A stretch of DNA of 61,835 bases, the filler included, from Kipferlia bialata (taxonomy: Eukaryota): NCBI GenBank assembly GCA_003568945.1. It is 2 parts of 2 records of this genome, joined end to end, with 100 filler letters (N's around TTAATTAATTAA, not from the genome) between each part and the next. Parts side by side here need not be neighbours in the genome. Positions count along the whole stretch, not along the records: positions 1 to 30,889 come from BDIP01000117.1; positions 30,990 to 61,835 come from BDIP01000118.1. One strand, 5' to 3'. This document shows, piece after piece, positions 7,301 through 61,779 of this stretch (the stretch's first letter is position 1; each line of letters opens with the position of its first letter). The position numbers and the translations under genes were made by a program. The notes below the pieces were generated by a model. It saw only the letters and a list, made by a program, of their open reading frames with translations. It had not been told where the DNA came from and searched no databases.

Positions 7301-9995
7301 CTGTCACCGCTGGCCCAAGTACTACTCGGCAGGGTGATGTGAGTATGACACACACCAACAGCACCACTGGGAGTGGTACTGATGGTAACCCCTCTGTGCC
7401 TGTTGGCAAGGAGTCCGCTACTCCGACCGTAGCCCCCTTTGGCAGTGTTCACGAGGGAGAGGACATGTCGGCTGCCTACTCTGTCTTCATGAACAGGTAC
7501 CAGGGCGTCTCTCATGGTGACAAGACCCTCATTGCTGCTAAGCGTGCCCTAATCGCTGAGTGGTGCATGGACAAGGACACTGGGATGAGACTGATGACGT
7601 GTGCACAGATTAGGGAGGTGTTTAAGTGTGGGAAGCTGCTGGTGGTTAGTGCTGAGCAGGCGGCCATTGCTAGTAAGAGAGGGACCGTAGAGCCTGAGGG
7701 GGAGAGTGGTGACACTAGTATGGCTGGTGCTGCTCCTGTAGAGTCTAAGGAGGAGCCTGATGGAAAAGGTGGCGAGAGAGAGAGAGAAGAGAGTGAGGAC
7801 AGACAGGAGGGAGAGAGAGAGAGAGATGAGAGAGAGGTGGGAGACGCTGCCGTTTACCCCAGGGACAGTGTTCTCTCTCTCTACCCAGGAGACAGTCTGG
7901 CTTTGGTGGCCACCTGGGATGGCATCCAGAGGAGGGTGAGGGAGGCAGAGAGAGAGAGAGACAGAGTGTATCTGGAGAGGGAGGTTGACAGACTGTATCT
8001 CGAGTTCATCCAGGACTGGTTCATGGACCAAGAGACTGGGGAGCAGCTGCTAGAGACACGCTCCATTGCAGCGTTTATGGGTGTCAGTGAGGGTGTTGTC
8101 ACTGAGGCCCTTGCTGCACCCTGGGACGAGGAGGAGGGGTACTCCACTGCCAGTGTGACAGGGCATCTAGAAGACGGCACTATCACACGACTACCAGAGG
8201 TTGTATCTGTACCTATCCCTCCCTCTGGGTACATGGTTGGACCACATGGCACTCTGCATGAGGGAGAGAGTATGGAGGGTGTCATGTCTGGGTATCATCA
8301 GACATACCCTTCAGGGGCAGGGAAGGACGCAGTAGCAGCCAAGCGCCAGTTGATACAGGAGTGGTGCTGTGACAAGGAGACTGGCCGCCTCTGCCTAGGG
8401 GTACAGAAGGTGAGGAAGGCCTTTGTCTGTAGCCGCAAGATGGTGCACGCGGCAGAGAGAGAGGCCGTGGAGGCCATAGAGAGGGGGAGGGAGATGGAGG
8501 CCGAGGGTGATAGAGAGAGTATCCAGGGAGGGGGAGAGATACCTCAGGACAGCGATGCCACACACCAGACGGAGAGTCCTAGCTGTACACAGATATTATC
8601 TGATAGTGCATTGCAGTCAGAGAGGTCTGCAGTACTTCCATTTGAGTATGGTCTTCCCAACACCCGCAGAGAGGGAGAAGACTTCTTCGCTGCCTATGCC
8701 AATCTGCTCGATACTGCTGGAGGTGATATCGAGAGCGTTGACACTGACGCCAAGTGTACCTTCATCAAGGAGTGGTTCATCCACAAGGAGACTGGCTATG
8801 TCCGGCTTCAGATGAAGGCGGTGAAGGGGCTGATGCAGTGTAACAACTACACCATTGCTCAGTGTCGCCGGGAGGTTATCTTTGAGGCAGGCTATCCTGC
8901 TCCTGGTGAAACCATTAGGGAGGGCGAGGATATCACCGCCGCATACACTGCCTTTCTAGCTCAATATCCAGAGACAACCCATCCTACTACTGCTGCACTG
9001 GCTGAGAAGAGGCGGCTTATCCGTGAGTACACCATCAACCAGCGGACGGGTAGGCTAGCAATGGCACCTCAGACTGTGATGCTGATATTCCAGTGCACCA
9101 AACGGACAGTGCTTGGGGTTGTGGCCTCTACATCTCTATCTACATCGGTTAGTGGCTCTACTAAGCCAGGGGACGATAGGGTGGATGGTGGATCTAGAGA
9201 GGGGGGGTGTTCAGACGCACATGTAGATCATAGGTTCGCTTCTGGGTATGAGGGTGAGAGAGACCCTGAGGAGGGGTATTGTGATGAGGGTGATGTTCTG
9301 ACCCATGCCCCCCCAGGCACCATGCACCAAGGGGAGGACATGAGAGAGGCATTCACTGCTTATGCACTAAGGTTTGTATATATGTATATGTGTGTATACA
9401 TTTACATGCACCAAGGGGAGGACATGAGGGAGACATTTACTGCTGTTGCACTAAGGTTTCTATATATACATATATAATTATGTGTGTGTGTGTGTATGTT
9501 TAAGTATATATATATGCATGAGGGGGAGGATGTGAGAGAGACATTCTATGCATTCTCTCTAAGGTATATATGATGTATGTATATATGTATGAATGTATCT
9601 ATGTATGTGTGTATACTCATACATTCTTACAATATGCACCCCATACTGATCCCTGCTGCCACAGAGGCCATGAGGGTATATATACATGTGTGTGTGTGTG
9701 TATTCTTCTGTTCTTATAACAGGTACCCCTGTACTGACACCCCTGCTGCCACCCTTGCCATGAGGGGTCTGATCAGAGAGTGGTTCATAGATCAGGTACA
9801 TAGACAATAATGCAACATAGTTTAGATTATTGGCGGCAGTATATAACTGATACTGATACCAAGGACACTGGCAGACTCGCCCTCCCGGCTGACGATGAGC
9901 AGTGGGCCTTCATATGTGGGGGGGAGACAGCACGTAGTGTGGAGAGAGAGGCCATGCAGTGTCTGAGGGCAACAGGGAGTATATTTCCATGCTAG
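4368..9995 (+). CDS. Large hypothetical protein with about 11 copies of a ~75-aa helical domain (exons about 4368-4424, 4654-7056, 7153-9371, 9723-9795, 9864-9995; 5' end uncertain)
   Basis: Long ORFs 4762-7089 and 7138-9477 join through intron 7057-7152, which completes a repeat unit (PIEQ|VRKAFKCS). Recurring motif: APPGTLHEGED.SAAY...KR.LI.EW..D..TG.L.L....VR..F.CS. Confidence 0.75.
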
Positions 9996-10505
9996 GTCGC
10001 TGGAAATCCCAGCCTGGGATCTTTGGGCGCACCTGGTTGTATAATACTATCATATTTCTTTCTGGTCTCTGTTGCAATTCCGTTAATACCATATTTGAGA
10101 GCTCAGATGCACTGTGACTTACCTGTCAGTATGTTGCTCTCATTTCGTTTGTCTCCTGAGATATATTGTAATAGATCATCATGGCATAGCCGATTCCGTT
10201 CAGTGAATATCGAAACATTATTACTGTTCACAGAAGATATGTATCCTCGAGTCAAAAATGCCTGTCAGTCTCTGAGTCTGGGAGATGAAGGAAGCTTAGA
10301 CTACCTCTATTGAATAGAGGGCCACAATATCGAGCCCCAAATTTGGCCCCCAATGTAATCTGAGTCTCAGACTGAGAATACTATTCTCGCCAAGAATTTA
10401 TTGGTGTTTCATCGCTGACAGATGATATCACTATTAGTGATAGTCTATTACAAGCAAATATTTTGTGAGCCAGGCCAAAGTTGGGGAGTTTGGCCCGAAC
10501 CAGTG

Positions 10506-10742
10506 TTATACACAAAACAAGTCTGACATGCAACGTGAGCTTTCAATATTATCAGTTATCAGGTAGCCTATCTCCACAGGAAGCGTGTCTGCGTGAACTA
10601 AGTAGGCATGACGGTGGCCTGCCACTAGAAGGATGTGAGTGGGACTGAGCACACATAAGGTGGCGTAGTGGCGTCCAGACTCCAGCCGTATCCAATATTC
10701 CTTCGCCCACTCGCCAGACACTACTGCATATACTATATGCAC
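10506..10742 (-). pseudogene. Possible remnant of the C-terminus of a Kelch-like family gene
   Basis: VVSGEW..Y.TLCVLSPTHILLV resembles the C-termini of the Kelch-like genes in this window (IVSGDV..HLCPVTPSTYL; ACHLTPHNIVV). No upstream exons found. Confidence 0.25.
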
Positions 10743-11265
10743 TGCATATTATGCAGTACCCTATATGCCATATAGGGTCACAATTTGGCTACTGGTCCCT
10801 TGCTCTACCACGGTGGTAACCACCATGAAGTAACTTTTTCATTGAAGTTCATGGCATGAACTGAATCTTTGTACCAAGTGACAAATCGTGATGTGCACTT
10901 AATGGAGTTGGGGTCAATTCTTCCGTAGAACCGTAGAATAGTAATCAAATAATCAAACCCCATTCAGAAGTTCACTGCAGAGAGCTGATATACATGAAGG
11001 AATATCTCATCTTTGCAAAGCCATTGGGAACTGGGCTGTTGATTAGCTAATAGTCTGATTATCGTGGGCCATATTTTATATACTTGACCTAATATTACAA
11101 CTATACTGCTCGACACTGCAGCCATCTCCAGTGGAGCCTGCCCCTCTCTCGATCGCCCTAGTGTCCCCAAACTCATAGCATCAACATCCAGTAACATATA
11201 TAAAGACATATTTATACAATTAGCAAGGTGGTCGAAAGGTCCTCAACCAAGGATCCTAAAGGTGT

Positions 11266-14200
11266 TCAAGCGCTTCCCCATCCTGCAGTGGCCTCTCCAA
11301 AGAGTAGCACCAGCATGGAGGTAGCAGACAGGGCCACTCCAACGAACAGCTGGTATCAGTATCAACAGTATCAGTATAAATACACTATCAGAACTATATG
11401 TATCAGTATCAGTATCAGTACCTGGTCCTCGGTGGTGTCCCTGAGGTGCAGGGCGCCGTCGTCCTGGACGTAGTACCTTGAGGTAAGGGACAGATTGTGT
11501 CTAGTACAGTGAATAGGTTAAATATGGCAAGACAGATGTATGAGGTGCATGCCGCCGTCATGGACGTGGTATCTGCGATGAGGGAAGACATATATGAGAA
11601 ATGTAATGTGTTGGAGAGAATTCTATGCAAGGAATGCAGTGAAGATGTAAATCACTGTGGTTGAGACAGAGAGAGAGAGAGACCACTCACTTCTTGCCAG
11701 GTGTCAGGCCAGAGTGCACTGTGGAGGTACCACCGGTGGTGGTGACTGGAGTAAGCAACGACAATATGACAGTAATTTGATAGTGGAAGTACTTTAGGAT
11801 AGAGAGCAGTATATATACTGTATATGTATGCATAAGATACTCACCATATACCGTATCCCCATCGGCACAGTCTGCAATGGCAATGCCCAGGTATGCATAT
11901 CACATTGTATATATATAACATACTATATATACACTATCATACCATATGCCATGTCCCCATCGGCACAGTCTGCTATGGCTATGCCCAGGTATGTATATCA
12001 CATTGTATATATATAACATACTATATATATAATATACTATATATATACTATCATACCATATGCCATGTCCCCACTTGCACAGTCTGCAATGGCTATGCCC
12101 AGGTATGTATACCATATTGTATATATATAACATACTATATATACACTATCATACCATATGCCATGCCCCCGTCGGCACAGTCTGCAATGGATATGCCCAG
12201 GTATGTATAGAGAGTGTATTACTATACTATACTATTGTATATCACTCATCATACCATAGGCCATGTCCCCATCGGCACAGTCTGCAATGGCAATGCCCAG
12301 GTATATCTGGAGAGTGTATATATAATACACAATATATATACTATCATACCATATGCCATATCTCCGTCGGGACAGTCTGCTATGGCAATGCCCAGGTACG
12401 TGGGGTCAGTGGCGATGGTGGCACCGGTGGAGATGGTTGCACTGCCGTCGTCATTCAGGAAGACCTGGGAATGAGGGAACGACAAGTCTTCTAATCTCTG
12501 ACAGGAAGATATAGAGAGAGACTGTGCTCGATAGAGAGAGAGGGAGGCCGAGAGAGAGAGAGAGTACGCACTGGGAGTCCAGCTGTGATGGCACCAGCGG
12601 CAGTGAGGGAGAATGTGTTTCCGGCGTTGTTCCACTCGAGTGCACTGGTGGCAGTGTTCATAGTCATGATCTAGGGGGTGAGAAGGGTCTTAACATCGAA
12701 AGAAGAGAGAATGAATATTGGTATAGAGAATAATCAGATGTGCTCAGGGTCATGATCCAGGGGTGAGTGGATAGACATATATCACACACATATGTTCGTG
12801 CTTATAATCCAGAAGCTGAAGCTGACTCAAAGTCATGGGCACTTCAATTGTCTGGTATGTACAGGAGTACCCACCTGACCGTTGGCCCCAGCAGCGGTGG
12901 GCAGAGAGTACTCGGTGCTATCCACACCTAACGTCAGCAGACAGAAACACACACACAGAAGATAACATACACTATGTAGCATAATCGCATGCTAAATTGG
13001 ATGGCGAATAATGATTTGCCGTAAAGATAGCATCTATCTATTAAGGTACTCACCCATTGTGAATGCGTCCGTGGTGACCTTGTCGAAGGATGCATCGGCA
13101 CCAGATACATTGCCAGTGGCACTCAGGGTGCCTGGGGTTAGAGTGAATAACAGTACCAAGGATACTTCCTAGAAACACTGGTATATGTTTGGTACTACTA
13201 GATGTGTATAGGTACTGGGACCGTGCCTGTGATTGCGGTGTTGCCTGCATCCAGGGCAGCGAGGGTGGACTTTCCAGTGACGCCGAGGGTGCCTCCGATG
13301 GTGGCGTTGCTGGAGACACTGGGGGTAAGAGAAGGGATGATAGAGAGACAGAGAGAGAGAGGGAGAGTACCTGAGGGTGCTGCTGAGGGTGGCTGCTCCG
13401 GTGACACCAAGAGTGCCGGTAATGGAGGCATTGGAGGACACAGCGAGGGTGCTGGAGAGAGTAGTGGCGCCAGTCACAGTAAGGGTGCCGCCGAGGGTTG
13501 TGGTAGCAGGGCCGGTCACTGTGAGGTTGCCGCCGAGGGTAGAGGTTCCAGTGACAGCAAGGGTGCCGGTTAGAGAAGTGGCCTGGGCACTAGCGACGGT
13601 GAGGCCACCGCTGAGGGTAGTGGCTCCAGTAACACCGAGAGTGGAACCTACAGTAGCAGCGCCAGTGACGCCAAGGGTGCTAGAGAGCGTGGCTGCTCCG
13701 GTGACAGAGAGAGTGCCTCCTAGGGTGGTGGTCTTGGTGGCATCGACGCNNNNNNNNNNNNNNNNNNNNNNNNNNNNNNNNNNNNNNNNNNNNNNNNNNN
13801 NNNNNNNNNNNNNNNNNNNNNNNNNNNNNNNNNNNNNNNNNNNNNNNNNNNNNNNNNNNNNNNNNNNNNNNNNNNNNNNNNNNNNNNNNNNNNNNNNNNN
13901 NNNNNNNNNNNNNNNNNNNNNNNNNNNNNNNNNNNNNNNNNNNNNNNNNNNNNNNNNNNNNNNNNNNNNNNNNNNNNNNNNNNNNNNNNNNNNNNNNNNN
14001 NNNNNNNNNNNNNNNNNNNNNNNNNNNNNNNNNNNNNNNNNNNNNNNNNNNNNNNNNNNNNNNNNNNNNNNNNNNNNNNNNNNNNNNNNNNNNNNNNNNN
14101 NNNNNNNCGTTGTCGGAGAAGGTAGAGGTGCCTGTAACCGCAAGGCTGCCTCCAAGAGTGGTTGCCATGCCAGTAGCAACGCCAAGGGTCCCATTGAGGG

Positions 14201-17078
14201 TGGAGTTGCCAGTGACGGTAAGGGTGCCTCCAAGAGAGGTAGCGGAAGACGTGACGGTGAGGGAGTTGTTGAGAGTGGTGGCGCCAGTCACAGTAAGGGT
14301 GCCACCGAGGCTAGTAGTGGCAGGACCGGTGACGCTAACGTTGCCAGCGAGAGTAGAGGTTCCTGCAACAGAGAGAGTGCCGCCAAGGGAAGTGATCTGG
14401 GATGCGGCAACGGAGAGACCACCGCTGAGGGTTGTGTCTCCGGTAACACCAAGAGTGGAGCCTACAGTAGCAGCGCCAGTCACACCAAGGGTGCTGGAGA
14501 GTGTTGCTGCTCCGGTGACAGAGAGAGTGCCGCCTAGGGTGGTAGTCTTACTGGCATCGACGCTGATGTTGTCCTTGAACACAGAGAGTCCATTGACAGT
14601 CAGAGCCTCAACCTCTGTGTCTCCAGAGACGTCGAGGTCATCGGAGAGAGTGGCAGCCTTGGACACAGACAGAGTGCCGCCGAGGGAGGTGGCCTTGTCA
14701 GCGGCTACGGTCACGGCGCCGTTGAGGGTGGAGGCGTTGTTGACGGTGATGGACGTGAAGGTGTTGCCTAGGGGTGAGAGAGACATGTTGATGACCAATC
14801 AAGTATGTGCATGCTCACCTCCAGTGTAGGTGATGTCGGACCAGGCCACTGTGCCGGACCCATCGGTGGTCAGGGTCTGGAGATGAGAGGGAACTACACG
14901 ACTACAAGTACCTACACTACTATAACAATGCATACAATAATACAAGAGTACGATGGCGTTGGTACCTGGTCAGCTGTGCCGTCAGTAGTGGGCAGGGAGT
15001 ATGCAGTGCCCATGGCCAGAGATGTCACGGTGGTGCCCAGGAGAGAGGTGGTACCAGTCACTGTCAGGGTGCCACCGAGAGAGGTGGCCTTGCCGGTGGC
15101 GACGTTCAGGGCGCCGTTCAGAGTGGTGGTCTTGTCGGTGGCAACGGTGACGTTGTCGTTGAGAGTGGTGGTACCGCTGACAGTCAGGTCTCCTCCTAGG
15201 GTAGTTGCCTTGTCTCCGACCACAGTAAGGGTGCCCCCGAGGGAGGTGGCCTTATCGGTGGCAACGGTGACGGCATCGTTGAGTGTGGTGGTACCGCTGA
15301 CGGTAAGGTTGCCGCCAAGGGTAGTGGCCTTGCCAGAAGCGACGGTCAGGGCACCGTTCAGAGTAGTTGTCTTGTCGGTAGCCACGGTTACGCCGTCGTT
15401 GAGAGTAAGGGTACCGGCGACGGTAAGGTCTCCGCCGAGGGTAGTCGCCTTGTCTCCGACAACAGTAAGGGTGCCGCCGAGGGAGGTGGCCTTGTCGGTG
15501 GCGACGGTGACGGCGTCGTTGAGAGTGGTGGTACCGGCGACGGTGAGGTTACCTCCCAGAGTGGTAGTCTTGCCAGAAGCGACGTCCAGGGTGCCGCCGA
15601 NNNNNNNNNNNNNNNNNNNNNNNNNNNNNNNNNNNNNNNNNNNNNNNNNNNNNNNNGGTGGTAGCCTTGTCGGCGGCGACGGTGACGGCGTCGTTGAGTG
15701 TTGTGGTACCGGCGACGGTGAGGTCTCCGCCAAGGGTAGTTGCCTTGTCTCCGACCACAGTAAGGGTGCCGCCGAGGGAGGTGGCCTTATCGGTGGCGAC
15801 GGTGACGGCGTCGTTGAGAGTGGTGGTACCGGCGACCGTGAGGTCTCCGCCGAGGTCAGTGTCCTGGCCAGCAGAGACAGAAAGCCCAGTGGCAAAGGAT
15901 GTGGCGCCTGTGACAGTGAGGCTGTCTAGGGTGGTCACACCACTGACAGAGAGAGTGCCAGTGACAGAGACATCGCCCCCGACATTGAGGTCGTCAGACA
16001 TGTTGACAGCGGTGGCGTCAATGGCCAGAGCACCACCGTCCTTGCCTGGGGTCAGGAGGGGTACCACTTAGTTCACAAATATACCAATAATTATCAACAA
16101 TTCATATACCGATAACAGACAACTATCTATGTCCGATATTCCCTTATTCCCTACCTGTGATTGTGGTCAGCTCCAGCTCTGTGAATGCATCAATGGCAAC
16201 GGCACCGGTGAACTCGACATCGCCTTAGGTGAGATGCCACCCCAAACAGACATAGTATTTGCACTGAATCACACTGCGAAAGAGACACAAACAGTAACTC
16301 CAACACTAATCTCCAGCGTACCAGTGAAGGTGACGGGCACAGCTATCACCATCTCAGTCTCAGCCTCCTCCTTTGCAGAGTAAGAATCGCTGGTGTTCTC
16401 AACCTGAATATGAGTCAGTCTCAAGGTGACAAAACAAAAATATATCAACCCTTTTGAGAAGTTAGAATAAGGGTGTAGAAATCGTTTGGCAAAAACTCTC
16501 GAGGCAATGATGACATCACATTATTCAGTGTTCACAAATACATATACTCATACCTGTGTGATGGCCAGGGCTGTGACACCGTTGTTAGTGAGGTAGAAGT
16601 CTCCTCCGATGATGGTGTCGCCCCTGGCCTCGGTGTTGATCTTGACAGCGCCTGGGGTGAGAAAGAGATATAGAATACCCACATATCTGTTGCGGCGGCA
16701 GAGAGGGGGATGTTGTGGTGGAAGTTGGGGTGGGGTGGGGGGGGGGGGTCTGATTGGGAGAATACAGTAGATTATATAAATAACTATGAATACAAACCTT
16801 GCTCACTCCCCATGGTCAGTGACGGGATACTGTAGTATGTATAGTGTAGAGCATATATTTACAAGGTATATATATATATATACATACCCTGGCCACTCCC
16901 CATGGCCACGTCTGTGTTGGTCTGGGGCTCAATCAGAAGGGAGCCAATCTGGGTATGAGACGTTGGCAGGGAAATAGAATAGATATAGCCAGCTGAATGC
17001 ATATGGGTTCTAAATTCACACATGCATATAGATATAACTAACCTGGGCATCGGTTCCCATGGCTGCGGATCCACTGCC
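11266..17078 (-). CDS. Multi-exon Thr/Gly-rich repeat protein resembling phage tail/capsid fibre proteins; start exon unresolved (possibly ATG 17343); two internal N-gaps
   Basis: In-phase exon chain GSGSAAMGTDAQ|IGSLLIEP..|AVKINTEARG..|..long repeat exons (16045-14965, 14767-13372)..|IMTMNTATSALEW..TAAGAITAGLP|VFLNDDGS..YLGIAIADC..|TTTGG..SGLTPGKK|YYVQDDGALHL..|LFVGVALSATSMLVLLFGEATAGWGSA*. Confidence 0.8.
11844..12398 (-). repeat. Six tandem copies of an exon 3' half plus donor site (YLGIAIADC.DGDMAY|GT), separated by TA-rich spacers
   Basis: Plus-strand unit ccatatgccatgtccccatcggcacagtctgcaatggcaatgcccaggta at about 11844, 11942, 12056, 12154, 12254 and 12349 (the last is the real exon). 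Confidence 0.9.
13372..15990 (-). repeat. Coding tandem repeats (VATDKATSLGGTLTVVGDKATTLGGDLTVAGTTTLNDAVT and TLGVTGAATLSS types)
   Basis: Visible directly in ORFs 14912-15895, 15549-16067, 13680-14798 and 13169-14233. Confidence 0.9.
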
Positions 17079-17208: not shown

Positions 17209-17252
<44 letters not shown>

Positions 17253-17664: not shown

Positions 17665-19421
17665 TTAGGAACAAAGCTCCCCCACGAGCAAACCCTGCTC
17701 ACTGTGCACCACAATATTGTGAGGAGTGAGGTGACATGCCCTGGTGTTAAGGGTGTAGAGAGAGATAGGGAGAGAGAGAGAGAGTAAAAGAATGGATGAT
17801 GTGACTGACTTGATTTGAAGAGAGTATGGTTTGGGCTGAGTAAGTCACTATACTTGCCCCATTTCATAGGCACTGGAACTTCAGCCTCTAATACTTATAT
17901 CCTATAGTATCTACTATACTATCTACTATATAGTATCTACTATGTGTATACTACATATACCTGCCCCATTTGATTGGCACTGGAAGCTCAGCCTGCTCCC
18001 TCCATGACTTGGTGAGGGTGTTGTATACATGGACCTCAGTGTCAGCCTACACACTGTGCATACATTACACATAGATATCTACTGTATATACTGAAGGTGT
18101 CGTATATGTGCACCTTGGTCTCATGGTGGTATCCACCCAGCACCACTATGTCTGTACCGATGGACAGAGTGGAGGCAGAGTAGACCTAGTGTATGAGTAT
18201 GTGGAGAGAGACAGAGAGATGGATAGAGTGGAGGCAAAGTATACCTGAAGTTAGGCGAAGAGAGGAGGTTTGAGGGGAGAGAGAGCAATTTTGGTAATAC
18301 GCAAGGGGAGTGTGTATTAATAGTAAGCAAATATTCGCAAATGCTATATTAATATATATATGTATAAATATGATGTACTATGAATACCACTACCTCAAAT
18401 GGTAAGTCAGCCTCTGTCACCCACCCTCCATCCTCTGAGTAGGAGAGGTGCATGGATGGGTTGTCAACTGAGCCAAAGAGGTGGGCAGTGTCACCTATGA
18501 CAACCGAGGTGGAGAAATAGAATGGAAGTGGGGCGTCAGGTACCTGGGTGAATGATTGTTGTCAGAGCTCAACAATACAAAGGGAGAGAGACATGAAACC
18601 TGAATTGTATTCGACACACGTAATGGAAAGTCTATGACAGGGTATGTAAAAGGGGTATGGAGAGGGGAGAGAAGAAGGGAAGGTATACACGGAGTACAAG
18701 AGGGAAGAGGAGGAGGGGGGGGTGGGGGAGAGAGAGAGAGACACACACAGATATATATATATATATGTATATATACGTTGTGGAACCCACTGACAATGAG
18801 AGTTCCCACCTGATTGTCTGGATCATAGCACCAGCAATCCCTCAGTGCACGTGACCCATCGAACCCTCCAGCAATGTACAGTCTACCCCCCAGTGTGAAT
18901 GCAGAGTGGTATCCCCTCCCTCCCGGCCACTGATTCCTCTCTGCCTCTCCCCATCGGTCTCTCGGCCACTGACCCTCAGTCTGCACCTCCCTCCACACAC
19001 CCTCACTGATACAATAGCAGTAGAGGTCACTGAGGTGTGAAGACTCAGTGTCACCTCCAAACAGGTACACACTGTCACCAATACGTGTGGCAGTTGAGTG
19101 ATGGGTGATGGTGGGTATGGGACATGGTATCACACGGTGGGCTAACCCTACTCTCCCACTCTCTCCAATACTCTCTGACACTACTATACTGTGGTCACTC
19201 TCGTTGGTGGCGTTCCTACCCACTATCAGAGTGGAGTACTGCTCTCTTGGTCTGAGAGTGTAATGATCTCTCTCTCCCTCTCTCTCCCCCTCTCCTTGCG
19301 TCATAGTGTGTGAGGGTGACTCCCCATCTTGGGAAAGGGGTCCTATATATGCAAGAGCACTCCGTCCATATGCCGCATGGCCCACATCCCGAAGGGCCCA
19401 CTCAATGCCACTGACTGACAT
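17665..19421 (-). CDS. Kelch-repeat beta-propeller protein (multi-exon)
   Basis: HHSTATRIGDSVYLFGGD..SDLYCY..W and RGYHSAFTLGGRLYIAGGFDGSRALRDCWCYDP are Kelch repeats. Later exons VHVYNTLTKSWREQAELPVPIKWGR|ACHLTPHNIVVHSEQGLLVGELCS*. Confidence 0.85.
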
Positions 19422-20568: not shown

Positions 20569-22293
20569 ATGAATGGCGAGGCTGGGCTCAATGTGAGTCC
20601 AGCTGAGGAGTTCAGCAGACGGGAGGCAGAGGTAAGTGTATGTATACACAACACCCAGTCTCTCCTCCAACTATATACATGTCTCTCTGTGACTTCTTCA
20701 ATAACTGGTGCCCTCCTGGCAACGTCTTGACCCCAGGTTGCTGCTGTGTATCTGAGGCAGGTGGGCCAGATAGCAGAGCGTGTGATTGGCTCCATCACTG
20801 ACGATACCCCCTTTGACAGGAGGACCACGTCCCTGGGGCCATTGGTGGCTATATCAGGTGTGGGGGGGGGGGAGAGGTTATGAGCTGATAGGCGTCCAGT
20901 GTTTCTCTGTACATGCATCTTGTCTACCACACTCCCTCTCTCGTGGGAGTATGTGCTTCTATGTACTCAGCAGTGACATTATGTATATGTACTGTGTACC
21001 CTTTGTCCTCACTGCAGGCTCCATCTCCGGTGTGTTGTTGGGCAAGTGTGTGTTGAAGTTCGATGCAGCAGAGCTCGGCATGGAGTCACTGTCCCCATCA
21101 ACAGCTAGGTACATGATATGTATTGCATGTGCTAATCACATATATATGTATACAACATATTACAGTGTACGGTCTAGAGGTGTCCATGTGCCTACCCAGT
21201 CCAGGTGTTGCCTCTTTACACTCCATACCCCTCTCCCTATGACTAACCCCAGGTCTGACAGGAGTAGGGGACTATACTACATACCATATATATATGCATA
21301 CACCTCTGCCTACCCCTTATAACAGGTCTGACAGGAGTAGGGGAAGGGACAAGGTGGCAGGGGCAGAGGGAGAGACTGTGGACTTCCCCATCCACAGAGT
21401 GCCCCTGGCCCCTGTTGTGTCTGCATGTGCCGCACTGAGGCGTCTGGTGGACAGGCTCAGCCACCCAATGCCACAGACCATACAGGTGGGTATATACATA
21501 TATAGTCATATGGGTATATGTCATGCACTGCCCCCAACCCCCCAGACCCTGATCCCCTTTGCCCTAGCTGCCCTGGCCACTGTGGATATAGCATGTGCCG
21601 CACTGCCTACCAGAGAGCCAGGTATAGTCATTGCGTATATACTCTTCTCTAAGGTGTGTGGTCGTGTATACCCACTCTATTAGGAATCTCTCTCTATACT
21701 GACGCCATGCATCCCCCTGCCCCTCCCCTTCCAGATAGCGCCTCCTCTCCCTGTCTCTGCCTGTCTGGGACCCAATGCACTCAGCATAGACATCAACGGG
21801 GGGGAGCAGGTGAGAGGGGACATGTATACACACATACATGTAGATTGTTTTTTCATATTTCTTGTTATATATACCTACATATACAGAATATATATTGATA
21901 TAGGAATAGCGTAGACATCAATGGGTGGAGCAGGTAAGAGGGGCTATGTATATTCACTACCCTCTCTCAATGTGTTTTACAGACCTATTCAAGGAGTAGT
22001 GTTGTTGCTATTGGAGGTTATCTCCCCTTTCCCTGACAGATTCACCTAAAGTAACAGAAGAATAGTGTATTCCATGGTCCAACTCTAGGTCTCCTTCTTC
22101 AATGTACCGGTTTAGTACATATTATGTGTGTATGTGTATGTGGGTATATACGTAGACCCACTCCAACCTCCAGGTCTGCTTCCTGGATGTCCCTGGTCTT
22201 GTCTCTGCCAGGGAGGATGTATCCACGTGCAGACAGATGCTGCTGTCCATATTGGCCAAGGCCGAAGTATTAGCTGGCGTTCTAGAACACTAA
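20569..22293 (+). CDS. Hypothetical multi-exon protein
   Basis: Exon chain with consensus splice sites: MNGEAGL..EAE|VAAVYLRQ..|GSISGVLLGK..|SDRSRG..|TLIPFALAALA..|..SIDINGGEQ|VCFLDVPG..VLEH*. No family recognised. Confidence 0.55.
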
Positions 22294-30889: not shown

Positions 30890-30989
30890 NNNNNNNNNNN
30901 NNNNNNNNNNNNNNNNNNNNNNNNNNNNNNNNNTTAATTAATTAANNNNNNNNNNNNNNNNNNNNNNNNNNNNNNNNNNNNNNNNNNNN
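30890..30989. other. Artificial 100-bp assembly linker N44-TTAATTAATTAA-N44
   Basis: A six-frame-stop palindrome centred between two 44-N runs. Confidence 0.9.
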
Positions 30990-31040: not shown

Positions 31041-31081
31041 GGGCCGCATATACATGTAGCTAGATAGTATTCAGCCCATAC

Positions 31082-34063: not shown

Positions 34064-34105
<42 letters not shown>

Positions 34106-35452: not shown

Positions 35453-35650
35453 ATGCCAGGCCGTGGTAGATACAGTGCCACCTATGACGAGGACACCCAG
35501 GACGAGTACAAGGTGTGTATCAAAGATAGTGTGTCCAGTAGTTACCTATCCTCTCTCTCTCTCTCTCTGTCTACTCTATATACATATATATACTTATACA
35601 GGATGAGTACAAGGTGTGTTTCCCTATCTGCTGAGGATGGCACCATGCAC

Positions 35651-35686
<36 letters not shown>

Positions 35687-38657: not shown

Positions 38658-38695
<38 letters not shown>

Positions 38696-39546: not shown

Positions 39547-40099
39547 TAATACCTTCATCAACCCGACTAAATCATCTAGGCTTGATGGAATAGATTGAAT
39601 CGACTTCCATTCAATAGAACAAGAACACAAGGACAAGAAGAGAGAGGAGGAGGAGGAAGAGAGTGATGACTAAATCATCTGGGCAGATGGAATAGATGGA
39701 GTAGACTTCCAATTAATAGTAGAAGAGAGATGAGTCATCTCAGATGACGATTAGTAAGGAGAGTGACTAGAATGGAGTGGAGTATACTTCATGCTTCATG
39801 GTGAGTGCATGTGTATGTTGTGCATAATATCAACTGACAGAATCTAGGAGACTCTGGAATCTTCCTCTTCAGAAATATATATATATATGCTAACTTAGAG
39901 TCAAGATGGGTTTGTGGATATAGTTGGCGGCGAGATAGGACGAAGAGAGGTTAGTGGGAACATTTGTTGGCCTGAGATCTGTGTTTACAATCGTGTGAAG
40001 AAACGCCGAACCCTTTCTTGATTCTCTCAGAGGATGTCATTCAGCTACACTCCAGCTCTTATCCTAGTAACAATCCACCTCAGCTGACAGCAAGTTCCT

Positions 40100-42573
40100 T
40101 GAGTGCATGAGGAAGGGCTTGTCGGGGAGTCCCTCTGTGCATCTCAGTCCGGCGCTGACCTTGGTGGGTATGTCAATCCTCTCTCTCTCTCTCTCTCTCT
40201 CATATATAAATATGTACATGTATGGCTTGCCAATATCCACGTGATATATTCACGGGTTCGGCTCTGAGCCTGGTGGGTATGTCCTCTTTTGACCCCCTCA
40301 TCCCCCCCCCCGCCACTTTGGACTCTCTCTCTGTCTCCATAGGTTTGCTCTCTCTAAGAATAGATAAGAGTGTATATAGAGTTCTATATGTAGTCTGGCT
40401 TTCCGATTCTTTCAATCTGCATGACTTTTCTCTCTCTATCTCTCTCTCCTCCTCCCTTTCCTCTCTCTCAAGACACTCCAACGCTATTCTCAATTCTTGT
40501 AGAGCTCTTCTCTCTGTTACCTATTGTCTCTAATCTATGTATTCTATGAGTGAGGTTGATCTCTGATCCCTCCAGGAGATCAGTAATGGTATTCATACCA
40601 ACATACATGTTTACAATATGTGTGATAATGTACATAGTTGGTTATTCCTAACCAGGAGATGGCCTAGGCCATACATACAATGTCATATATATACATGTGT
40701 GTGTGTGTTTGTGTGTGTGTGTGTTTGTTCGTGTGTGGATGTATACCCCCCCCCCTCTAACCCCAGGAGATGACCTCACTTCATTTATGTATATACATAT
40801 ATATGTATGTATACAGTGTATACCATACACAGTGTGTATTACACACTCATAACCCCAGGAGATGACCTCAGTCAAGTGGTCAGGTACACATCAGTCTGCC
40901 CCCTCTCTGAAGGGGCGGTGTTTGCAGTGACAAGCACTTACACCGATACAGTGACAAGTGCATCTGGTATGGGTGTGATGTCTACTGGGTGTGTCATACT
41001 GACCCTGGTCGAGGCGGAGGTGGTGTGTGAGAGAGTGGAGTGTCCTATACCCGACTGGGACGGAGACACGTTTCAGAGTGAGCCATACACTGTGGTACGT
41101 AATACATACACACTTACAATTACACTTCACATGTACTGAGTGCTCATCAATGATGACTCATCATGAATATTGCATGGTTTTCTGGATTCTCTGGGAGAGA
41201 CACGTTTTCGAGTGAGCCATACACGGTGGTATATATTCATGTGTTCTATCTTTCCAGCGTTATATATACTCCATTTCCTTTTGGGAGAATGCTTGGCCTC
41301 GCAATTCTTACCTTATGGCTATGTTATCCCATACGTATATTTGTCTGTGTATATACGTAGCATACCTGTATGTCCATCTCACACCCTCACTCCCCAAGTG
41401 TGTCTACCTAGGAGGGGGTGTTGTGGGAGTGGTGCGCGGCAAGAGTGTGTACCTCCTCTCCCTAGACACGAGAGAGTGGCAGGTGCAGCAAGGGGTACTG
41501 TCACATGACGCACTCGGGTCAACCCAGCTTGCATGTGCACTTCAGGGCAAGGTAATAGGACAAATTGGTATTGATACTCGATAGTAATTGATATGGATAA
41601 TTGGTGTCATTGTCGCATATGTCTTTTCTTCTTTCCGTTCTGTACTTCTTCTGTGTTGCAAATAGGTGAAACTCAATCAGTCCCGCCATTTCCCTAATAG
41701 TTCCATGATAATAGTACCCTTACCACAAGATCATTATATTATTCAGTGATATTGTATATTGTTACTCTTACTATCAGATCATTATAGTGTCAGGTAGAGA
41801 CTACCACAACCCAACCGTGTGGGAGTATGACACTTTGTCCCAACTGCTCTGGAAACTCCCCCTTCCACCCAGCGGCAACAGCCTTAGAGTGCTGGAGTAT
41901 GGCACAGAGTATAGAGGGTCATTGCACTATATAAAGCGTCAGTCGCACCTTATATATACACCGGGACAATCACAGGTAGAGAGAGAGGGAGAGCCTGACA
42001 GAGAGAGAGACAGAGAGAGAGAGGGAGAGGGTGGGTGGGTCAGTATCCCAATGGGGTGCCACAACCATGGGGATGTGGCAGCACTGGGCAGGTTAGGGAA
42101 CCACGGCGTCCACACATAGCCATACAGATACTGATACTGAATCAGTATTACTGGTCATTCAGTGTACAGTTACTCATGCCAGGTACCTAGTCTATCCCCA
42201 TGAGGACACCCTTGTGGCATGGGACTCTGTCTCCGGGGTGTATCACAACATAGAGATGCCAGAGGTAGGGTTAATATTCAGTTCAGTTACTATATGGTCT
42301 ATATTGTCTAGTCTTTGTCTCTCTCTGACTCTAGGGTCCTGCCGGCATCTACCAGCTGTGTGAGCGGTTGGTCAAACTTAGTGACACAGAGGTATGATTG
42401 TGGGCCACAATTTGTGGCATACTATAGACCCTCAGTATTCAGACTAATTCCCACTATCCTAAGCGAATTTTCTACTACCTGTCACACTGATTAATTAGGC
42501 ACTGGCTTTTGGCTATCAGGACGGGAGGCAGTGTTTAAGACTGGTGACATTGGGGGTGCTGGAGGAATCATAG
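40100..42573 (+). CDS. Degenerate Kelch-like beta-propeller protein (multi-exon; start uncertain)
   Basis: CVILTL..CERVECPIP, VYLLSLDTREW, IVSGRD..TVWEYDTLSQ, LVAWDSVSG. Consensus splice sites; ends LVTLGVLEES*. Confidence 0.55.
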
Positions 42574-43345
42574 ACTATGATTCGTAATGATACCTTATAC
42601 CTTGCAGAAGCCCATTAGGTACTCAACACGCCAAATGCATGGATCAAAACATGCTGGAAGAGTCATATAATACAATTTGTTACCGAGACTCTCACGGTCT
42701 GCCACGAGTTCATTGACTGAGTCTATTGGGTAATGAGGGGATCAAAACAACTCTTCCTCAGAGGTAGAGAAGGCTGTTTCCACTATACCGTGATATTAAT
42801 ACCGAGAGGAAATACAGAGAGTAAATTGAACTATATGTGAGTCTACAAGAGATTTGGTTATGTACACTCCTATAAAATATTGTAACTCATTTGCTCATTA
42901 CAATAACCAGAGGAAGAAGACTGGAAAAGCGGTTTCTGGATTCAATACTTGTAGATCATTAATGGCCCTGAATTGGGGCTCCGATTTCCTCCCCTCAGTA
43001 GATAACGTCTACAAGAAATGAAGAAGAGTAGACGAAATTGGGAGAGAGACCAAAATTCGCACAACATGTGACCTCTAGATGAAGAGTCAACATGACTTGT
43101 AACTGCCTATCTTTTCACTCTCACTAGACTAGTCTGTCCATTATTTCCATTAACGACAGTGTCTGATTGAATCAATACGACCAAATGTGTTATCCGACTA
43201 GTTAATTTAACAGGTCCTCTCTAGACACAACCTCAGCTACACTCTACTAAGAACCCGTGATATTCACTCTCACTGGGTCACTGATACTATCGGTGACTGA
43301 TAGAGATTCACTCTAGTATAAGCCACACTTGGTTCTCAATCTGGA

Positions 43346-46174
43346 CTAGAACAGGTCCTCCTTAGACACCACCCCAGCGACACTCTGGACCAGGGCATGG
43401 TTGACGTGGAGGAGGCACCACTTGCTGAGGGTAAGTGTAGGCGTTTATACTAATGGTGTAACAGTTAAACAAAAAAAGAATTCATCTGACACAAAGTAAT
43501 TGTAATTGTGACACGAGAGAGACGACTTGCTTAGAGTGGTATTACCACTGGTAAGTCAAAAGATCTGCATAGAACGGTGCACAAGTGTACTTACCGTTGA
43601 CTATTCTGAGGTATCAGTTTAATACAAAATATCACTAATGTGGTAGACACATGCACTCACTCATTGACTTGTGTGAGGTATGTGGAGGGTGTCACGGGGC
43701 ACAGGTGCTCCACACGCTGTGTGTCGTGTATCTCCACGCCCCTATAGACATCGCCACTGACTATGTCCAGTACACAGTGTGCAATTTCAGTGCCAGTGTC
43801 GTACCACTTAGGAACAGTGTGTGATACTCTGATGTCGGCAGAGTACACAAGTAGTGCCTTTCCGCTCTGTATGTACCGGGGTGTGTCTAGCAGTGGCATC
43901 TGAGAGTGGCGTGGGCAAAGGGAATCCACCCAACCAGTGTCTGGGTGGTATGTAAAGTGCCTCTGAACCCTGTCTATCTTGGAACTGAAGGAAGACACCA
44001 CCACATGCAGACACGAGTCACTGTAGACAAACATGTCCCCGGCATCTAGTGTGTTAGAGTCGCACACATAAATGATGTGAAATCACACAGTTATTGATAA
44101 GTGATTCAATGACACCTTGTGTTTTCATCGGGTATACCTTACAAATAAATGTACTGTAAACATACAGTTTTACCTTCCTGTCCCAGGCATAGCACCCACT
44201 TCTGCTGGACGTGACTCTCCTCACTGTCATCGATGATGTCAATAGACACACCCCAGTGAGCCAGTTGTACCAGGTAGAGAGACTCCCTGTACACGTGCAT
44301 AACCTGATATGAGCGAAACGGCGTCCAAGCATTCTTAGGTAGCTGATCGACTGTATATCATATACACTCACACATGTATAGACTATTGATTCTTCAATGT
44401 CTCATGCATATAACTACAATAAGGAAAGCTTTCCAGTACTGTGTCGTTACGTCTATATGATTCAGGTAGTGCCACATGATGCGAATGTTTTGAATTGGTA
44501 TAATACACCATAATACATGGTTCCATGGTACACTGTGTTGACACTTTTAGCTGTATTTGTATCAGTAGTATTACACTGTACCGTCTTCTGAAACCCAGTC
44601 TTGGCCATGACAGCAGCAGGCACGTTTCTTTCCCTGATCTCCCAGCGGTCTATGGTGAGAGTGGGTGACAATAGTGATGAGAGTCGAATGGTAGTAGAGT
44701 CATATGGATCAGGTCAATGAATTGGAAAGGAGAATGTGTAATAGACCATTTCGTTGCCTACCTGTGTCAATGGTGTATATGACAAGAGAGGCCTCTGTGG
44801 AGTTTGGTTGTGCTTCATCCCCCTCCTCTCTTGTGCTACGGAATGAGCAGTACAGGTACATCTGGTGGTGGATAAACAACTGAAACAATACAAGTGACTC
44901 CTTAACGTATAATCCAACGATGCCAATGGCATCATACCATACATGTGACTACCTTACCGTTGTGGACTATTCCACAGTGCGTGGTGTTACTCCTCATCTC
45001 GTCGGGGATAGGACCATACTCACCAGTCTCTGTAGGTACCAGACACTGTACACCATCCTTCTCCCGTAGTGTCAAGAAGTACTCACATGCGTTGGTGGAG
45101 GTAACATAGGTGTTGAACACTAGGTTGTGGCCCAGACCTATTGGGTCAAAGCAAACACCCATGTCCCGCACACCAACCCTCTCTAAACGGAATAGTCCAC
45201 CTGTATCCTCTTGACTCCATCGGTGCCTGGTGTTAGGGAAGGTACATTGACGCCTGCTCTAAATACCCCATTAGTTAACACATATACTCATTGTCCCTAC
45301 CTCTCCAACCATAGTTCTTGCCTCTCCCTCACTCTATCCGGGTGCTGCTCCCTCACTCTCAGCTCTTCCTTTAACTTGGTCAGCTGGTCTGCAGACGTGG
45401 CGCCCACATACCACTGTGAGTACTCCTGTGGGAGCCTAGGATCCCCGCACCTGGTGTTATGTTAACTCGCGGAAAGAACTGACTGAATACATGTAAGGAA
45501 CTAAACATATAGATCACTGAAATCAGAGTTATGTGCAGCTATATGAACCTCAGCTGCTACTATCGGGGACATAACTCTGCACCTACCTGTCAACAGGTAT
45601 ATTATATATATATATATATAGTATATGCATACATATGTATATATATACATATATACCTGTCTGGATCCATGTTCGTCATGCTCTGACGAAGCATTCCACC
45701 ATACTCTGTGTCTTCAAGCCAGTAGACATCCTCGTTCCGGCAGTAGACCTGGAACTTAACCAAATATTTATCAATTGAAGTGGAAATGAATCATATTTCT
45801 TGGTGGATTTAGATCTCAAGATAGCCTCAATATGAGACCTCCCCACTCATACTATCAGTATACAGTGGTTCCCAAAAACAGAATACCTTCGCAACAGAGC
45901 CGTCCTCGAACTGAAGTGTCCACTCGAGTGGATACTCCTCGTCTGTGTCGTGAAATTGAGGGGGTCCGCCGAGGAGGGCTTGTATTAGGGTACGTGTAGG
46001 GGGTTTCAACTGGATTAGAGATACCCTGACAGGGTAACCCTGTTACTACTATATTCTATGCCAACCTGTCATGGTCTCGAGATCTAACTCTGGGCACACA
46101 ATACCAACAAAGTGTCTCGTTCCGTCAAACTCGTCAGTGGTGGGGAGATCACCATTCACTATAGTGAACTTCAT
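43346..46174 (-). CDS. Hypothetical protein with degenerate Kelch-like C-terminal region (multi-exon)
   Basis: MKFTIVNGD..; LVIYTIDT|DRWE; HFTYHPDTGWV; VLDIVSGDV..HLCPVTPSTYL; ends LHVNHALVQSVAGVVSKEDLF*. Confidence 0.55.
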
Positions 46175-59634: not shown

Positions 59635-60514
59635 TCAATCTATGATATCCCAGACTGCTCTCTCATAGAGCAGTGTCCCGCCCTCACCATGGATCAACAT
59701 GGTGCCTGGGTATTGGTTACACACATATATGTGAAAGTAGATATATGACATCAATCCCAGTCTTGAATTCATCTGTTCCTATCAGCCATGTGTCACTGTC
59801 CTAATTAGTCAGGATGTGGAAATTAATGAAAATTCATACCATAGATCCCATTATGCATTTGCTAGCCCCCTCTGGTACTATCAACACTGGAGGGTATTCA
59901 TATATATACACCAGTATATAGTATAGTATACCTGTGCCCATAAGACATGCATCACCCCTCTGGTGCAATCAGGGCATCCCCTCCCCCCAACCTCTCGCTC
60001 TATATAAAGTAATTACTGTATATATTTACCTGATCCCATTATGCATGTGTCACTGCCCTCGGGGGCTATCAACATTGGAGTATATACATATATATATACC
60101 AGTATATACTATAGTATACCTCTCCCCATTATACATGTGTCACTGCCCTCTGGTGCTATCAGGGCAGCACCCACAATGCCATCAAGGGGGATGTCGGCCT
60201 CATCCCTATGAGTTAGTATATATCCACAGTACACTCATATATCATACTATTACAATGAATCCATCATGCCATCAAGGGGATGTCGCCCTCATCTCTAAGG
60301 GTCAATATATAATGACATTCTTACTATCTAAATACACATATAGGATATTCAGATATAGTATACAGGTCAGTACATACCTCCATGCAGAGTGGGTACCAAT
60401 GTTACCCCTAATGGTATCACATGCAGCACCATTACTAGGGCTAGGTGTAGATGATACTGTCATGGCAGCCTCTGCATCCAGGACATGCACTCTGCCCTCA
60501 TGCCTAGGGTGAGA

Positions 60515-60567
<53 letters not shown>

Positions 60568-61779
60568 TATACAGAGATCACCCTGCCCTCATGTCTAGAG
60601 TTAGGGGACATATATATATACTTATGAATATATGCATACGCCATGTATGCTCTGGGGATATATACTGCATCCAGAACATGCACCTGCCCTCATGTCTATG
60701 GTTAGTATCAATAAATACAAATATGAATGTATATGGAGATATATACATAGCTATAGACAGAGAAGCAAGACAAGGATACCTGTCCCCCCCTATGAAGTAC
60801 ATGTCCTTGCCCACAGACACACAGGCAGCACTCATGGCCTAGAGTGAGAGTATGTGTATACACACATATCATATATATCAAGTATGGAATGCATCTGCAT
60901 ACGTATACGAGTGGACACTCACACAGGCAGCACTCATGACCTAGAGTGAGAATACATACCAAACACCATACTGACATACTATACAGTGAGACGTCTACCG
61001 ACCTGAAATGGCACTCTGCCCCTTGATGACCTCTCCCACTCTATGGTGGGTGGCACTCTCTCTCCCTCTCCCTCTTGCTCCCCTTCTATGAACTGGCACA
61101 CCAAGTGGGTACGATGGTTATAGGATGCATTGCCTAGGGATCAGTGTTCACAGAACGGAGCTGAGACAGCAATACTCATTGAAACAAATGGCTCTGCAAC
61201 TATGGGAAACAGAAAATACATATAATAATATAATACCTAGTATGTGCACATATCCCTTGTGACATGCTGCTGCAGTGTATGTCAGGTTGAGGGGGGAGTC
61301 AGTGAGTCTGGTCCAACCACCAGAAGTGTCATACTCCCAGACCTGGGGTGACTCTTATCCATTCATGATATCAAGGTATGAGAGGTGCGCTCCAGGCAAA
61401 TGAGGTGTGATATTTCTATATACACACAATGTAAATACTGTTGAGTTCCACACACTTAATGAAACATACCTGCCGAGTCTCTCTCCCATACCCTCCCCCT
61501 ATGACCACGAGTTTGTCATGCACAGAGAGGGCACAGTGGCCCTGTGGGTTAATAATACCAATAATAATCATATGAATAAGAATGAAAGAGAAAGATAGAG
61601 AGAGAGAGAGAGTCTGTGCCGCACAGCCCGGGCACAGTGGCCCTGAGGTTAGATATACAAAAACTAATATATATAGGTGTATATATATATAGGTCGGTAT
61701 ATGTATATATAGAGAGAGGGAGATAGAGAGAGAGAGTGTGTCACGGACAGGCAGGGCATAGTGGCCCTGTGGTAATATA

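Follow-up and report, generated by a model that had tools for sequence, protein, structure and literature searches.

Forty-eight copies of exon ends were curated at 25 exons (29 exon halves) of seven genes in a 61,835-nt window of the Kipferlia bialata genome, the window being the whole stretch of DNA that was analysed. The copies are junction-spanning tandem duplications of about 100 nt, and we give an even chance to the reading that they are halves of formerly working alleles displaced by uneven recombination. Their coding-like divergence likely reflects this past as parts of working alleles.

Architecture and distribution of the copies

K. bialata is a free-living, intron-rich protist. Repeats were detected by a codon-blind diagonal scan for same-strand local repeats, and exon models were set by hand except for the Bax inhibitor-1 (BI-1) gene. 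Control diagonals at 3000-3865 nt gave no matches outside two coding-repeat regions, and those at 20000-20865 nt gave seven weak matches. Scan and curation confirmed the original prediction of tandem, same-orientation copies, one to five per array. Their reach had been overstated: seven genes were curated rather than at least eight unrelated ones, and the arrays are not pervasive, the scan finding none at 31050-34340 (a gene of proteasome RPN1/RPN2 type), at 46600-58050 (a large gene with many exons) and in the gene at 58050-59290. The arrays are located as follows.

9292..9567, + strand: exon 3′ end (donor after 9371) with two downstream copies of 3′ part plus GT, 9405-9459 and 9514-9567
9631..9795, + strand: upstream 5′-part copy 9631-9676, no AG in register, of exon 9723-9795
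11422..11574, − strand: repeat-protein gene, exon 11422-11476 with upstream AG plus 5′ copy 11541-11574 (in-frame 3-nt gap)
11843..12464, − strand: repeat-protein gene, mosaic array of exon 12350-12464 with five downstream copies of 3′ part plus GT (12250-12303, 12150-12206, 12052-12108, 11938-11994, 11843-11895)
16793..16948, − strand: repeat-protein gene, exon 16888-16948 with downstream copy 16793-16818
17849..18246, − strand: Kelch-like gene (weak Kelch_1 match, below cut-off), exon 18114-18185 with upstream copy 18218-18246 and exon 17961-18034 with downstream copy 17849-17887
21250..21938, + strand: unassigned-family gene, upstream copy 21250-21271, identical to the start of exon 21326-21485; exon 21735-21809 with downstream frameshifted copy 21908-21938
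35348..39546, + strand: Bax inhibitor-1 family gene (K. bialata GIQ80180.1), with a spliced contig and 18 of the 48 copies
35460..36149, + strand: BI-1 3′ copies 35599-35618 and 35727-35747, 12-nt DEYK pieces with exon-derived AG plus GT; exon 36093-36149 with 5′ copies 35899-35923 and 35982-36007
36229..37041, + strand: BI-1 exon 36574-36631 with three 5′ copies (36229, 36307, 36403) and one 3′ copy 36697-36737; exon 36992-37041 with 5′ copy 36854-36884; displaced copy 36918-36942 of exon 36093, the single polarity exception
37230..38738, + strand: BI-1 copy 37230-37272; nested array of exon 37925-37996 with 5′ copies 37694-37732 and 37806-37841 and 3′ copies 38048-38096 and 38131-38186; copies 38431-38472 and 38696-38738, the latter with a Ser AGT/TCA swap
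39622..39673, + strand: copy of the end of the last BI-1 exon, stop codon included, in the 3′ flank
40080..41231, + strand: unassigned-family gene, 3′ copy 40256-40281; exon 40859-41094 with 5′ copies 40572-40582, 40652-40671 and 40762-40780 and 3′ copy 41191-41231
43209..43430, + strand: neutral-looking 5′ copy 43209-43245 of exon 43355-43430 (0 synonymous, 5 nonsynonymous differences)
59771..61771, − strand: Kelch-like gene, ten copies, three of them frameshifted, around exons 61470-61541, 60780-60838, 60378-60503 and 60120-60205, the last with four 3′ copies and one 5′ copy

Each unit consists of an exon end, its splice site and the adjoining intron in the orientation of the exon. The exon portion spans 7-56 nt (median 32). 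The predicted arrangement, acceptor plus 5′ half upstream and 3′ half plus donor downstream of the working exon, holds in 47 of 48 copies. As anticipated, most copies carry a single splice site in register, AG in 21 and GT in 20; seven have neither and none has both. Alignment to the exon is gapped in nine of the 48, about five of these being frameshifts. The donor-side intron flank of the copies scores 6.5 against their own real intron and 1.6 against other introns, the acceptor-side flank 3.4 and −0.2 respectively. The copies are thus genomic duplications, since their flanks resemble their own intron more than other introns. The inner breakpoint is common to the copies of one array in most multi-copy arrays; all five copies of exon 12350-12464 begin at exon position 64-67, and this array looks mosaic (5/6 informative site pairs incompatible, P 0.03-0.06).

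The period has a median of 101 nt and lies within 59-167 nt for 47 of 48 copies. It was rejected as a mechanistic constant, being bounded by exon and intron sizes and by detection limits. The coincidence of 5′-copy ends with 3′-copy starts, seen at three of four exons, is weak, as the copy lengths sum to about the exon length anyway.

The lack of two-site copies agrees with the earlier view that these are not mutually exclusive exons. Whole exons that were duplicated, both used and then reduced to a half on one side would supply a selected phase without the need for diverse alleles. Such decay predicts both polarities and surviving intact pairs; with one polarity in 47/48 copies and both sites in 0/48 it is largely refuted and highly improbable.

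Assembly and splicing of the copies

The contig check covered one 10.1-kb stretch of the 61.8 kb, holding 24 of the 48 copies. Separately assembled DNA contigs (429-1886 nt) reproduced 13 copies and their spacers with no differences and no gaps, and the mis-assembly set out beforehand as a refutation was not seen in this stretch. An artefact in which alleles or paralogues were stitched in tandem is next to impossible on these data, even though the window may itself have been built from the DNA run and the contigs are confined to the stretch checked.

Transcripts were followed in a run taken to be RNA-type, which shows GT..AG joins missing from the DNA run; the seven joins listed are present in it, against a depth of 0 in the DNA run. 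These are the seven ordinary joins of a BI-1 spliced contig of depth 510, which has no differences from the working exons among the pieces listed and skips all seven copies in 37230..38738. A low-depth spliced contig skips the first four copies of the gene at 40080..41231. Spliced contigs therefore skip 11 copies in two genes, the joins listed leaving the other 37 uncovered; for these 11, the splice site nearest the whole exon is the one used and the mRNA is normal. The exons are colinear with no sign of DNA-level reassembly, and the annotated BI-1 protein contains working exons only. The contigs display a single mRNA form, and contigs drop rare variants.

Translation of the copies, by rare isoforms or by unconventional repeat-guided joining of RNA or DNA, would account for their coding-like divergence. 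Three 3′ copies have an exon-derived upstream AG and in-frame lengths (12, 12 and 30 nt), and the spliceosome is reduced, with no snRNA candidates found in K. bialata in the available part of PMC6679479. The ordinary joins, the annotated protein, the 5′ copies without a following GT and the frameshifts all speak against it, and translation is very unlikely; the unconventional joining offered originally as a second option gained no support. Intron gain, the third option, does not describe the arrays either: the units sit inside single introns, spanning pre-existing junctions, and the mRNA gains no intron.

Divergence between copies and exons

Copies and exons differ at 208 of 1431 sites (about 15% mean divergence), with 98 synonymous and 110 nonsynonymous differences over 477 codons. 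The first-position Leu swaps and the Ser AGT/TCA swap reported earlier were found, the latter at 38696-38738. The dN/dS is 0.29 pooled and 0.41 (0.33-0.54) with one copy per exon half; the synonymous skew, first described as strong, is thus present but moderate. Dead duplicates had been expected to ignore codon position. This is wrong for copy-versus-exon comparisons: because half of the divergence accrues on the working exon, the dead-copy null is about 0.45-0.53 and not 1. Pooled dN/dS as proof of selection on the copies was rejected on account of pseudoreplication and the wrong null.

Plain dead duplicates would arise by tandem duplication within one allele in slippage-prone, microsatellite-rich introns, the skew coming from the later evolution of the working exon. 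The de-duplicated dN/dS of 0.41 compares with 0.45-0.52 under this null and falls inside it (P 0.17-0.40), and the synonymous fraction, 0.41, is at the dead-duplicate ceiling of 0.43. Microsatellite content is 8-19% in copy-rich regions against 1-8% in copy-free genes. Frameshifted copies exist, several look fully neutral and one is identical to its exon. However, changes private to the copies are synonymous in 29 of 69 cases (0.42) against 0.27-0.28 under simulated nulls in which dead duplicates arise sequentially or the exon converts the copy (P 0.000-0.003). The copies contain no stop codons where 2.8-3.9 would be expected (P 0.02-0.07), although about 5 of 48 are frameshifted, and amino-acid changes are conservative (mean BLOSUM62 −0.19 versus −0.42 to −0.65, P 0.000-0.07). 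These three tests reject the null, also with conversion added, and therefore suggest that selection on the protein was acting while a large part of the differences accumulated; they draw on 69 private changes from this window, on exon models set by hand outside BI-1, on parsimony counts and on simulations with simple trees. Taken singly, no copy exceeds the ceiling of the dead-duplicate model once 35 tests are corrected for (best P 0.03), and in conserved genes alone the synonymous fraction of 0.51-0.52 is not significantly above the ceiling of 0.44 (P 0.13-0.18). When a star model was simulated with selection along its branches and 25% dead time, it reproduced the observed values; 50% dead time did worse. 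Plain dead duplication appears rather unlikely.

An origin of the fragments by copying from paralogues at other places in the genome would suit the several hosts that belong to repeat or kelch-like families. The BI-1 gene has 18 copies, and no close paralogue was found, the next match among proteins of 142-454 aa having 31% identity; such an origin is extremely improbable.

Origin of the copies and relation to known systems

The reading of the copies as retired allele halves can be put in four steps. Where an exon breaks, or a fork stalls in it, repair would copy from the homologous chromosome, running across the conserved exon and on into the intron, and would be closed by end-joining rather than a clean second-end match, so that the old exon end would remain with one splice site. 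Survivors would then be the duplications that keep one whole exon between the nearest AG and the nearest GT, because the spliceosome presumably pairs sites across short exons (exon definition); this filter would explain both the polarity and the size window. A founder copy could next misalign with working exons of other alleles, which would enlarge the array, give its copies a common inner breakpoint and make their sequence mosaic. Finally, retired copies would decay, a step seen in part in the frameshifted and neutral-looking copies; by the simulations, dead time makes up about one quarter of the branch of a copy. The supplement of PMC8516963, in the part available, lists four Dmc1 models and PolQ for K. 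bialata and no Ku70 or Rad51A.

The polarity, the absence of two-site copies, the homologous intron flanks, the shared inner breakpoints, the mosaicism and the selection signature in private changes support this origin. The list of repair genes, the fit of the star model and the failure to find a close BI-1 paralogue also count in its favour. Of the explanations first put forward, unequal exchange leaving retired or donating halves fits best, and the breakpoints, mosaicism and private changes bear it out in part.

A second DNA version of a neighbouring gene carries at least 15 synonymous, 16 nonsynonymous and 9 intronic changes in 40 of 75 rows. Over the same 40 rows pS is at least 0.06 and pN/pS is 0.31, which resembles the 0.35 of the copies and also supports retired alleles. 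A second DNA version also aligns across copy 43209-43245, with a shorter spacer at 43257-43316 (58 versus 9 nt). Against the retired-allele origin, an allelic synonymous divergence of about 0.25-0.35 is needed versus the value of at least 0.06 measured in the neighbouring gene; the de-duplicated dN/dS and the neutral-looking copies also weigh against it, no donor allele was seen, and inspection of the junctions by eye did not establish microhomology. In 36201-43200 there was no second DNA version at 88% likeness or above, a result that favours neither side, as this region may be hemizygous, too diverged or filtered. A short-protein search found no second BI-1 allele, and a metagenome scan for one gave 61 pattern matches, none confirmed.

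Copies might instead still donate, at times converting or collapsing into the working exon, and indirect selection in a very large population would keep them protein-like. Ordinary genes would then hold intronic libraries of exon ends feeding the working exon, a diffuse genome-wide cassette system in a eukaryote reported without Ku and Rad51A. Donation would leave the same selection signature, and the working exon and different copies share states in a mosaic fashion that is suggestive of transfer. The reading frame is preserved in the silent vls cassettes of Borrelia (PMC3828179, available part), and CBS 844ins68 has been proposed as a conversion template (PMC2630376, available part). In contrast, about 5/48 copies are frameshifted, the copy seen in two DNA versions differs at positions that appear nonsynonymous in the alignment rows, and the hosts include the housekeeping-type BI-1 with no sign of diversifying selection. 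We regard both donation and such a cassette system as distinctly unlikely.

If the copies are retired allele halves, each affected exon has its past alleles stacked next to it within a single assembly. Allelic diversity and the results of repair could then be read directly in a lineage reported without Ku and Rad51A and with Dmc1 and PolQ. If the copies still donate, cassette-driven variation would gain a new and general form. The arrays also provide a test set for splice-site choice in an intron-rich species with a reduced spliceosome, which bypasses perfect-looking donors and acceptors and presumably pairs sites across short exons. They are a route to longer introns without intron gain, and a trap for gene prediction.

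The literature search returned no report of such copy density or coding-like divergence, the architecture being known from single human loci (CBS, F7); the comparisons below draw on the available parts of the papers cited. Human CBS c.844_845ins68 is a 68-bp intron/exon junction duplication whose upstream exon piece is spliced out (PMC2630376). It shares with the K. bialata arrays junction duplication, a spliced-out exon piece and copies differing in sequence, and conversion has been proposed for it. CBS has one polymorphic locus, one extra copy and one base difference, whereas K. bialata has 48 copies in 62 kb, about 15% diverged, in both polarities and with a selection signature. At F7 IVS7, CBS IVS13, 6-16, LAMIN B2 and PDGF, minisatellites with pseudo splice donors span a junction (PMC1557585); each tandem unit begins within the exon and brings a further copy of the donor, the first of which is used. 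The F7 unit has 4 exon nt and donor sites identical in sequence, unlike the K. bialata units, with 7-56 exon nt, on the acceptor side as well and well diverged. The near-identity to the source junction in CBS- and F7-type duplications is thus not found here, with 208/1431 sites differing.

In Borrelia vls, silent cassettes feed one antigen locus under diversifying selection (PMC3828179), and unexpressed copies with coding-like features lie beside expressed sequence, as here. The K. bialata copies, in contrast, lie at many exons of unrelated genes, some are frameshifted, and the skew is of purifying type, dN/dS being 0.29-0.41 rather than that of diversifying selection; donation is a candidate only. 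Scrambled ciliate genes have paralogous MDSs, partial duplicates used via programmed DNA rearrangement (PMC9797194), and thus also local partial coding duplicates decaying beside a used copy, but in K. bialata the genes are colinear and the copies are removed by ordinary splicing. Short tandem duplication near splice signals is also a feature of the intron gain or sliding attributed to tandem genomic duplication (PMC3265369, PMC4974935, PMC2891723); in K. bialata, by contrast, existing introns are lengthened and no new intron is made.

Architecture of the exon-end copies

The window DNA is of the intron-rich eukaryote type; the parts consulted of the K. bialata genome paper (PMC5874029) count 124,912 introns of the GU-AG type and give a diploid k-mer profile. 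A codon-blind scan revealed many short same-strand repeats on near diagonals of the window; control diagonals gave 0 matches outside two coding-repeat regions on one set and 7 weak matches on the other. Curation from the scan and by eye yielded 48 copies of exon ends at 25 exons of 7 genes. A 35-nt internal repeat common to neighbouring working-looking exons (21403-21437 and 21571-21605) was excluded from this count. Each copy holds 7-56 nt of exon (median 32). As the original prediction stated, most copies carry one splice site: acceptor AG is kept in 21, donor GT in 20, both in 0 and neither in 7. In 47/48 cases the copy lies upstream of the exon when it repeats the 5′ part and downstream when it repeats the 3′ part; the array period has a median of 101 nt (59-167 nt in 47/48). 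The intron flank beside a copy is closer to its own real intron than other introns are, hence the duplicated unit is the genomic junction. An inner breakpoint is common to most multi-copy arrays. The arrays are real, but not pervasive across the window: they are concentrated in certain genes, and three genes gave no copies in the scan, namely one of proteasome RPN1/RPN2 type, the 11-kb gene 46600-58050 and the gene at 58050-59290.

Features of the window
35348..39546 (+): Bax inhibitor-1 family gene (BI-1)
35599-35618, 35727-35747: two in-frame 12-nt DEYK pieces with AG and GT (a single DEYK in the annotated protein), which could be microexons
36697-36884: 3′ copy with GT, full intron and 5′ copy with AG, a complete inner intron nested in the real one; two-step splicing is possible
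36854-36942: a copy of an exon two introns upstream separates a 5′ copy from the exon it repeats, which suggests template switching in several steps
11843..12464 (-): five-copy array, repeat-protein gene
13200-16100 (-): long coding repeat of the repeat-protein gene, 36-120-nt units rich in Thr/Gly/Val; the piece tested against Pfam has no match above cut-off
5700-9370 (+): long ORF in which a domain without Pfam family occurs at least seven times; a poly(A) polymerase-like exon (3558-3920) lies upstream
46600-58050 (-): large multi-exon gene with short introns and bacterial Ig-like/carboxypeptidase-regulatory-like repeats in a 2-kb exon
43657-45450 (-): copy-free gene
30890-30989: gap with a short TTAA-repeat stretch flanked by two N runs; long poly-G tracts adjoin gaps elsewhere

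DNA contigs and spliced contigs

Contigs of a DNA sequencing run (X1) and of a run taken as RNA by guess (X2) were compared with window 35300-45400. X1 contigs match 36201-36629, 36704-38589, 40818-41973 and 42046-43673 without a single difference or gap, and 13 copies with their spacers lie inside them. Mis-joining is thus excluded for these copies, X1 being possibly the window's own source and not an independent sample; that the copies are an artefact, such as the mis-assembled alleles or paralogues named beforehand as a refutation, is scarcely credible.

A BI-1 exon used as query matches the Bax inhibitor 1-related protein GIQ80180.1 of K. bialata (NCBI name), 100% across 86% of its length, and the spliced model equals this protein except for the first residues. 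A 780-nt X2 contig (depth 510.6) makes seven GT..AG joins across BI-1, skipping 7 copies, and a contig of depth 4.7 skips 4 more in the adjacent gene. Judged from the length of the 780-nt contig and binned depth, the upstream BI-1 copies may be skipped as well. Copy-specific variants, suggested earlier as a thing to look for in mRNA, are absent from the three listed pieces of the 780-nt contig (0 differences), in a comparison where contigs lose rare variants and rare isoforms are invisible. Use of the copies in mRNA or through unconventional joining is highly improbable in view of these joins; an origin as decayed mutually exclusive exons is very improbable indeed. Templating by paralogues would be a remote prospect, as no close BI-1 paralogue was found among proteins of 142-454 aa.

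Divergence between copies and exons

Over 477 codons, with the donor-plus-intron duplicate 37039-37067/37129-37157 (only few exon bases) excluded, copies and exons showed 98.25 synonymous and 109.75 nonsynonymous differences, 59/50/99 by codon position, and 0 stops. Pooled dN/dS was 0.29 (bootstrap by exon 0.18-0.52). Neutral decay alone, simulated in the same pipeline, gave 0.98 (0.71-1.35), but this null is wrong: the partner of a dead copy in the comparison is an exon that has gone on evolving under selection. Simulated dead duplicates gave 0.41-0.62 depending on setting; the premise of codon-blind differences is wrong for comparisons of copy with exon. Since copies of one exon are non-independent, one copy per exon half was recounted (29 halves): dN/dS was 0.41 (0.33-0.54) against a dead-duplicate null of 0.45-0.52 (P 0.17-0.40). 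The predicted synonymous skew, present in the pooled value, thus proves little.

Plain dead duplicates fit this recount, but are unlikely from the changes private to single copies, which should be nearly neutral if copies were dead at birth. The synonymous fraction was 29/69 (0.42) against 0.27-0.28 under sequential duplication or codon-wise exon-to-copy conversion (P 0.000-0.003), and the excess persisted with the junction codon trimmed (27/61). Stop codons numbered 0 against 2.8-3.9 in the nulls (P 0.02-0.07), and 81 distinct replacements were conservative (mean BLOSUM62 -0.19 against -0.42 to -0.65, P 0.000-0.07). These values agree with a star model whose branches are under selection, with 25% dead time (private fraction 0.37; exon-private 9.3/7.7, observed 10/5); the fit is poorer with 50%. 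Copy-versus-copy dN/dS was 0.36, a pseudoreplicated value. Against a purely selective account stand gaps in 9/48 copies (about 5 frameshifting), several neutral-looking copies and overdispersion of the synonymous fraction (P 0.04, 35 copies). The private-change, stop and BLOSUM62 tests rely on counting by parsimony, on simple trees and on exon models set by hand, and so provide moderate evidence of past selection.

Origin of the arrays and known counterparts

There is about an even chance that the arrays arise by out-of-register repair copying from a diverged allele. Repair would copy an exon end with adjoining intron, and out-of-register rejoining would retire the old exon end. A duplication spanning exactly one junction would be tolerated, since one short exon is still framed by the nearest AG and GT; duplication of a whole exon or of two junctions would harm the mRNA. 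The arrays could afterwards be enlarged and mixed by uneven exchange with working alleles. That the copies are cassettes still donating is doubtful. In the five-copy array, 5/6 pairs of 4 informative sites, all synonymous, are incompatible (P 0.03-0.06, neutral tree), which hints at exchange.

The copy-free gene has a second X1 version of similar depth with 75 differences; the 40 listed (15 synonymous, 16 nonsynonymous, 9 intronic; 1.7 kb) give pS of at least 0.06 and pN/pS 0.31. The intron at ~44862-44952 is not alignable between the versions. We read the second version as a second haplotype, a paralogue being the alternative; the two versions suggest high heterozygosity. X1 contig depth across 36201-43673 is ~410-433, similar to that of one version of the neighbouring copy-free gene, and no second X1 version was found in this stretch before ~43200: it may be hemizygous, too diverged or filtered. 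The main weakness of the retired-allele model is that the required allelic dS (~0.25-0.35) exceeds the lower bound next door; no donor allele was seen.

In the parts consulted, PMC8516963 describes metamonads without Ku70/80, loss of Rad51A in fornicates, and four Dmc1 models and PolQ in K. bialata; alternative end-joining in general yields templated insertions and tandem duplications (PMC7407515, in part). The arrays may be tied to this repair setting.

The arrays are apparently undescribed: 'duplicat' and 'tandem' have 0 occurrences each in a term search of the main text of PMC5874029, and no fitting description was found in accessible literature on Kipferlia introns and exons or in general, subscription papers being mostly beyond reach. 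They are, however, less strange than first proposed, their architecture being already known at single human loci. From the portions consulted, CBS 844ins68 (PMC2630376) is a counterpart of the acceptor side, and the F7, CBS, 6-16, LAMIN B2 and PDGF minisatellites (PMC1557585) are counterparts of the donor side; the K. bialata arrays differ from these in density, divergence and selection signature.
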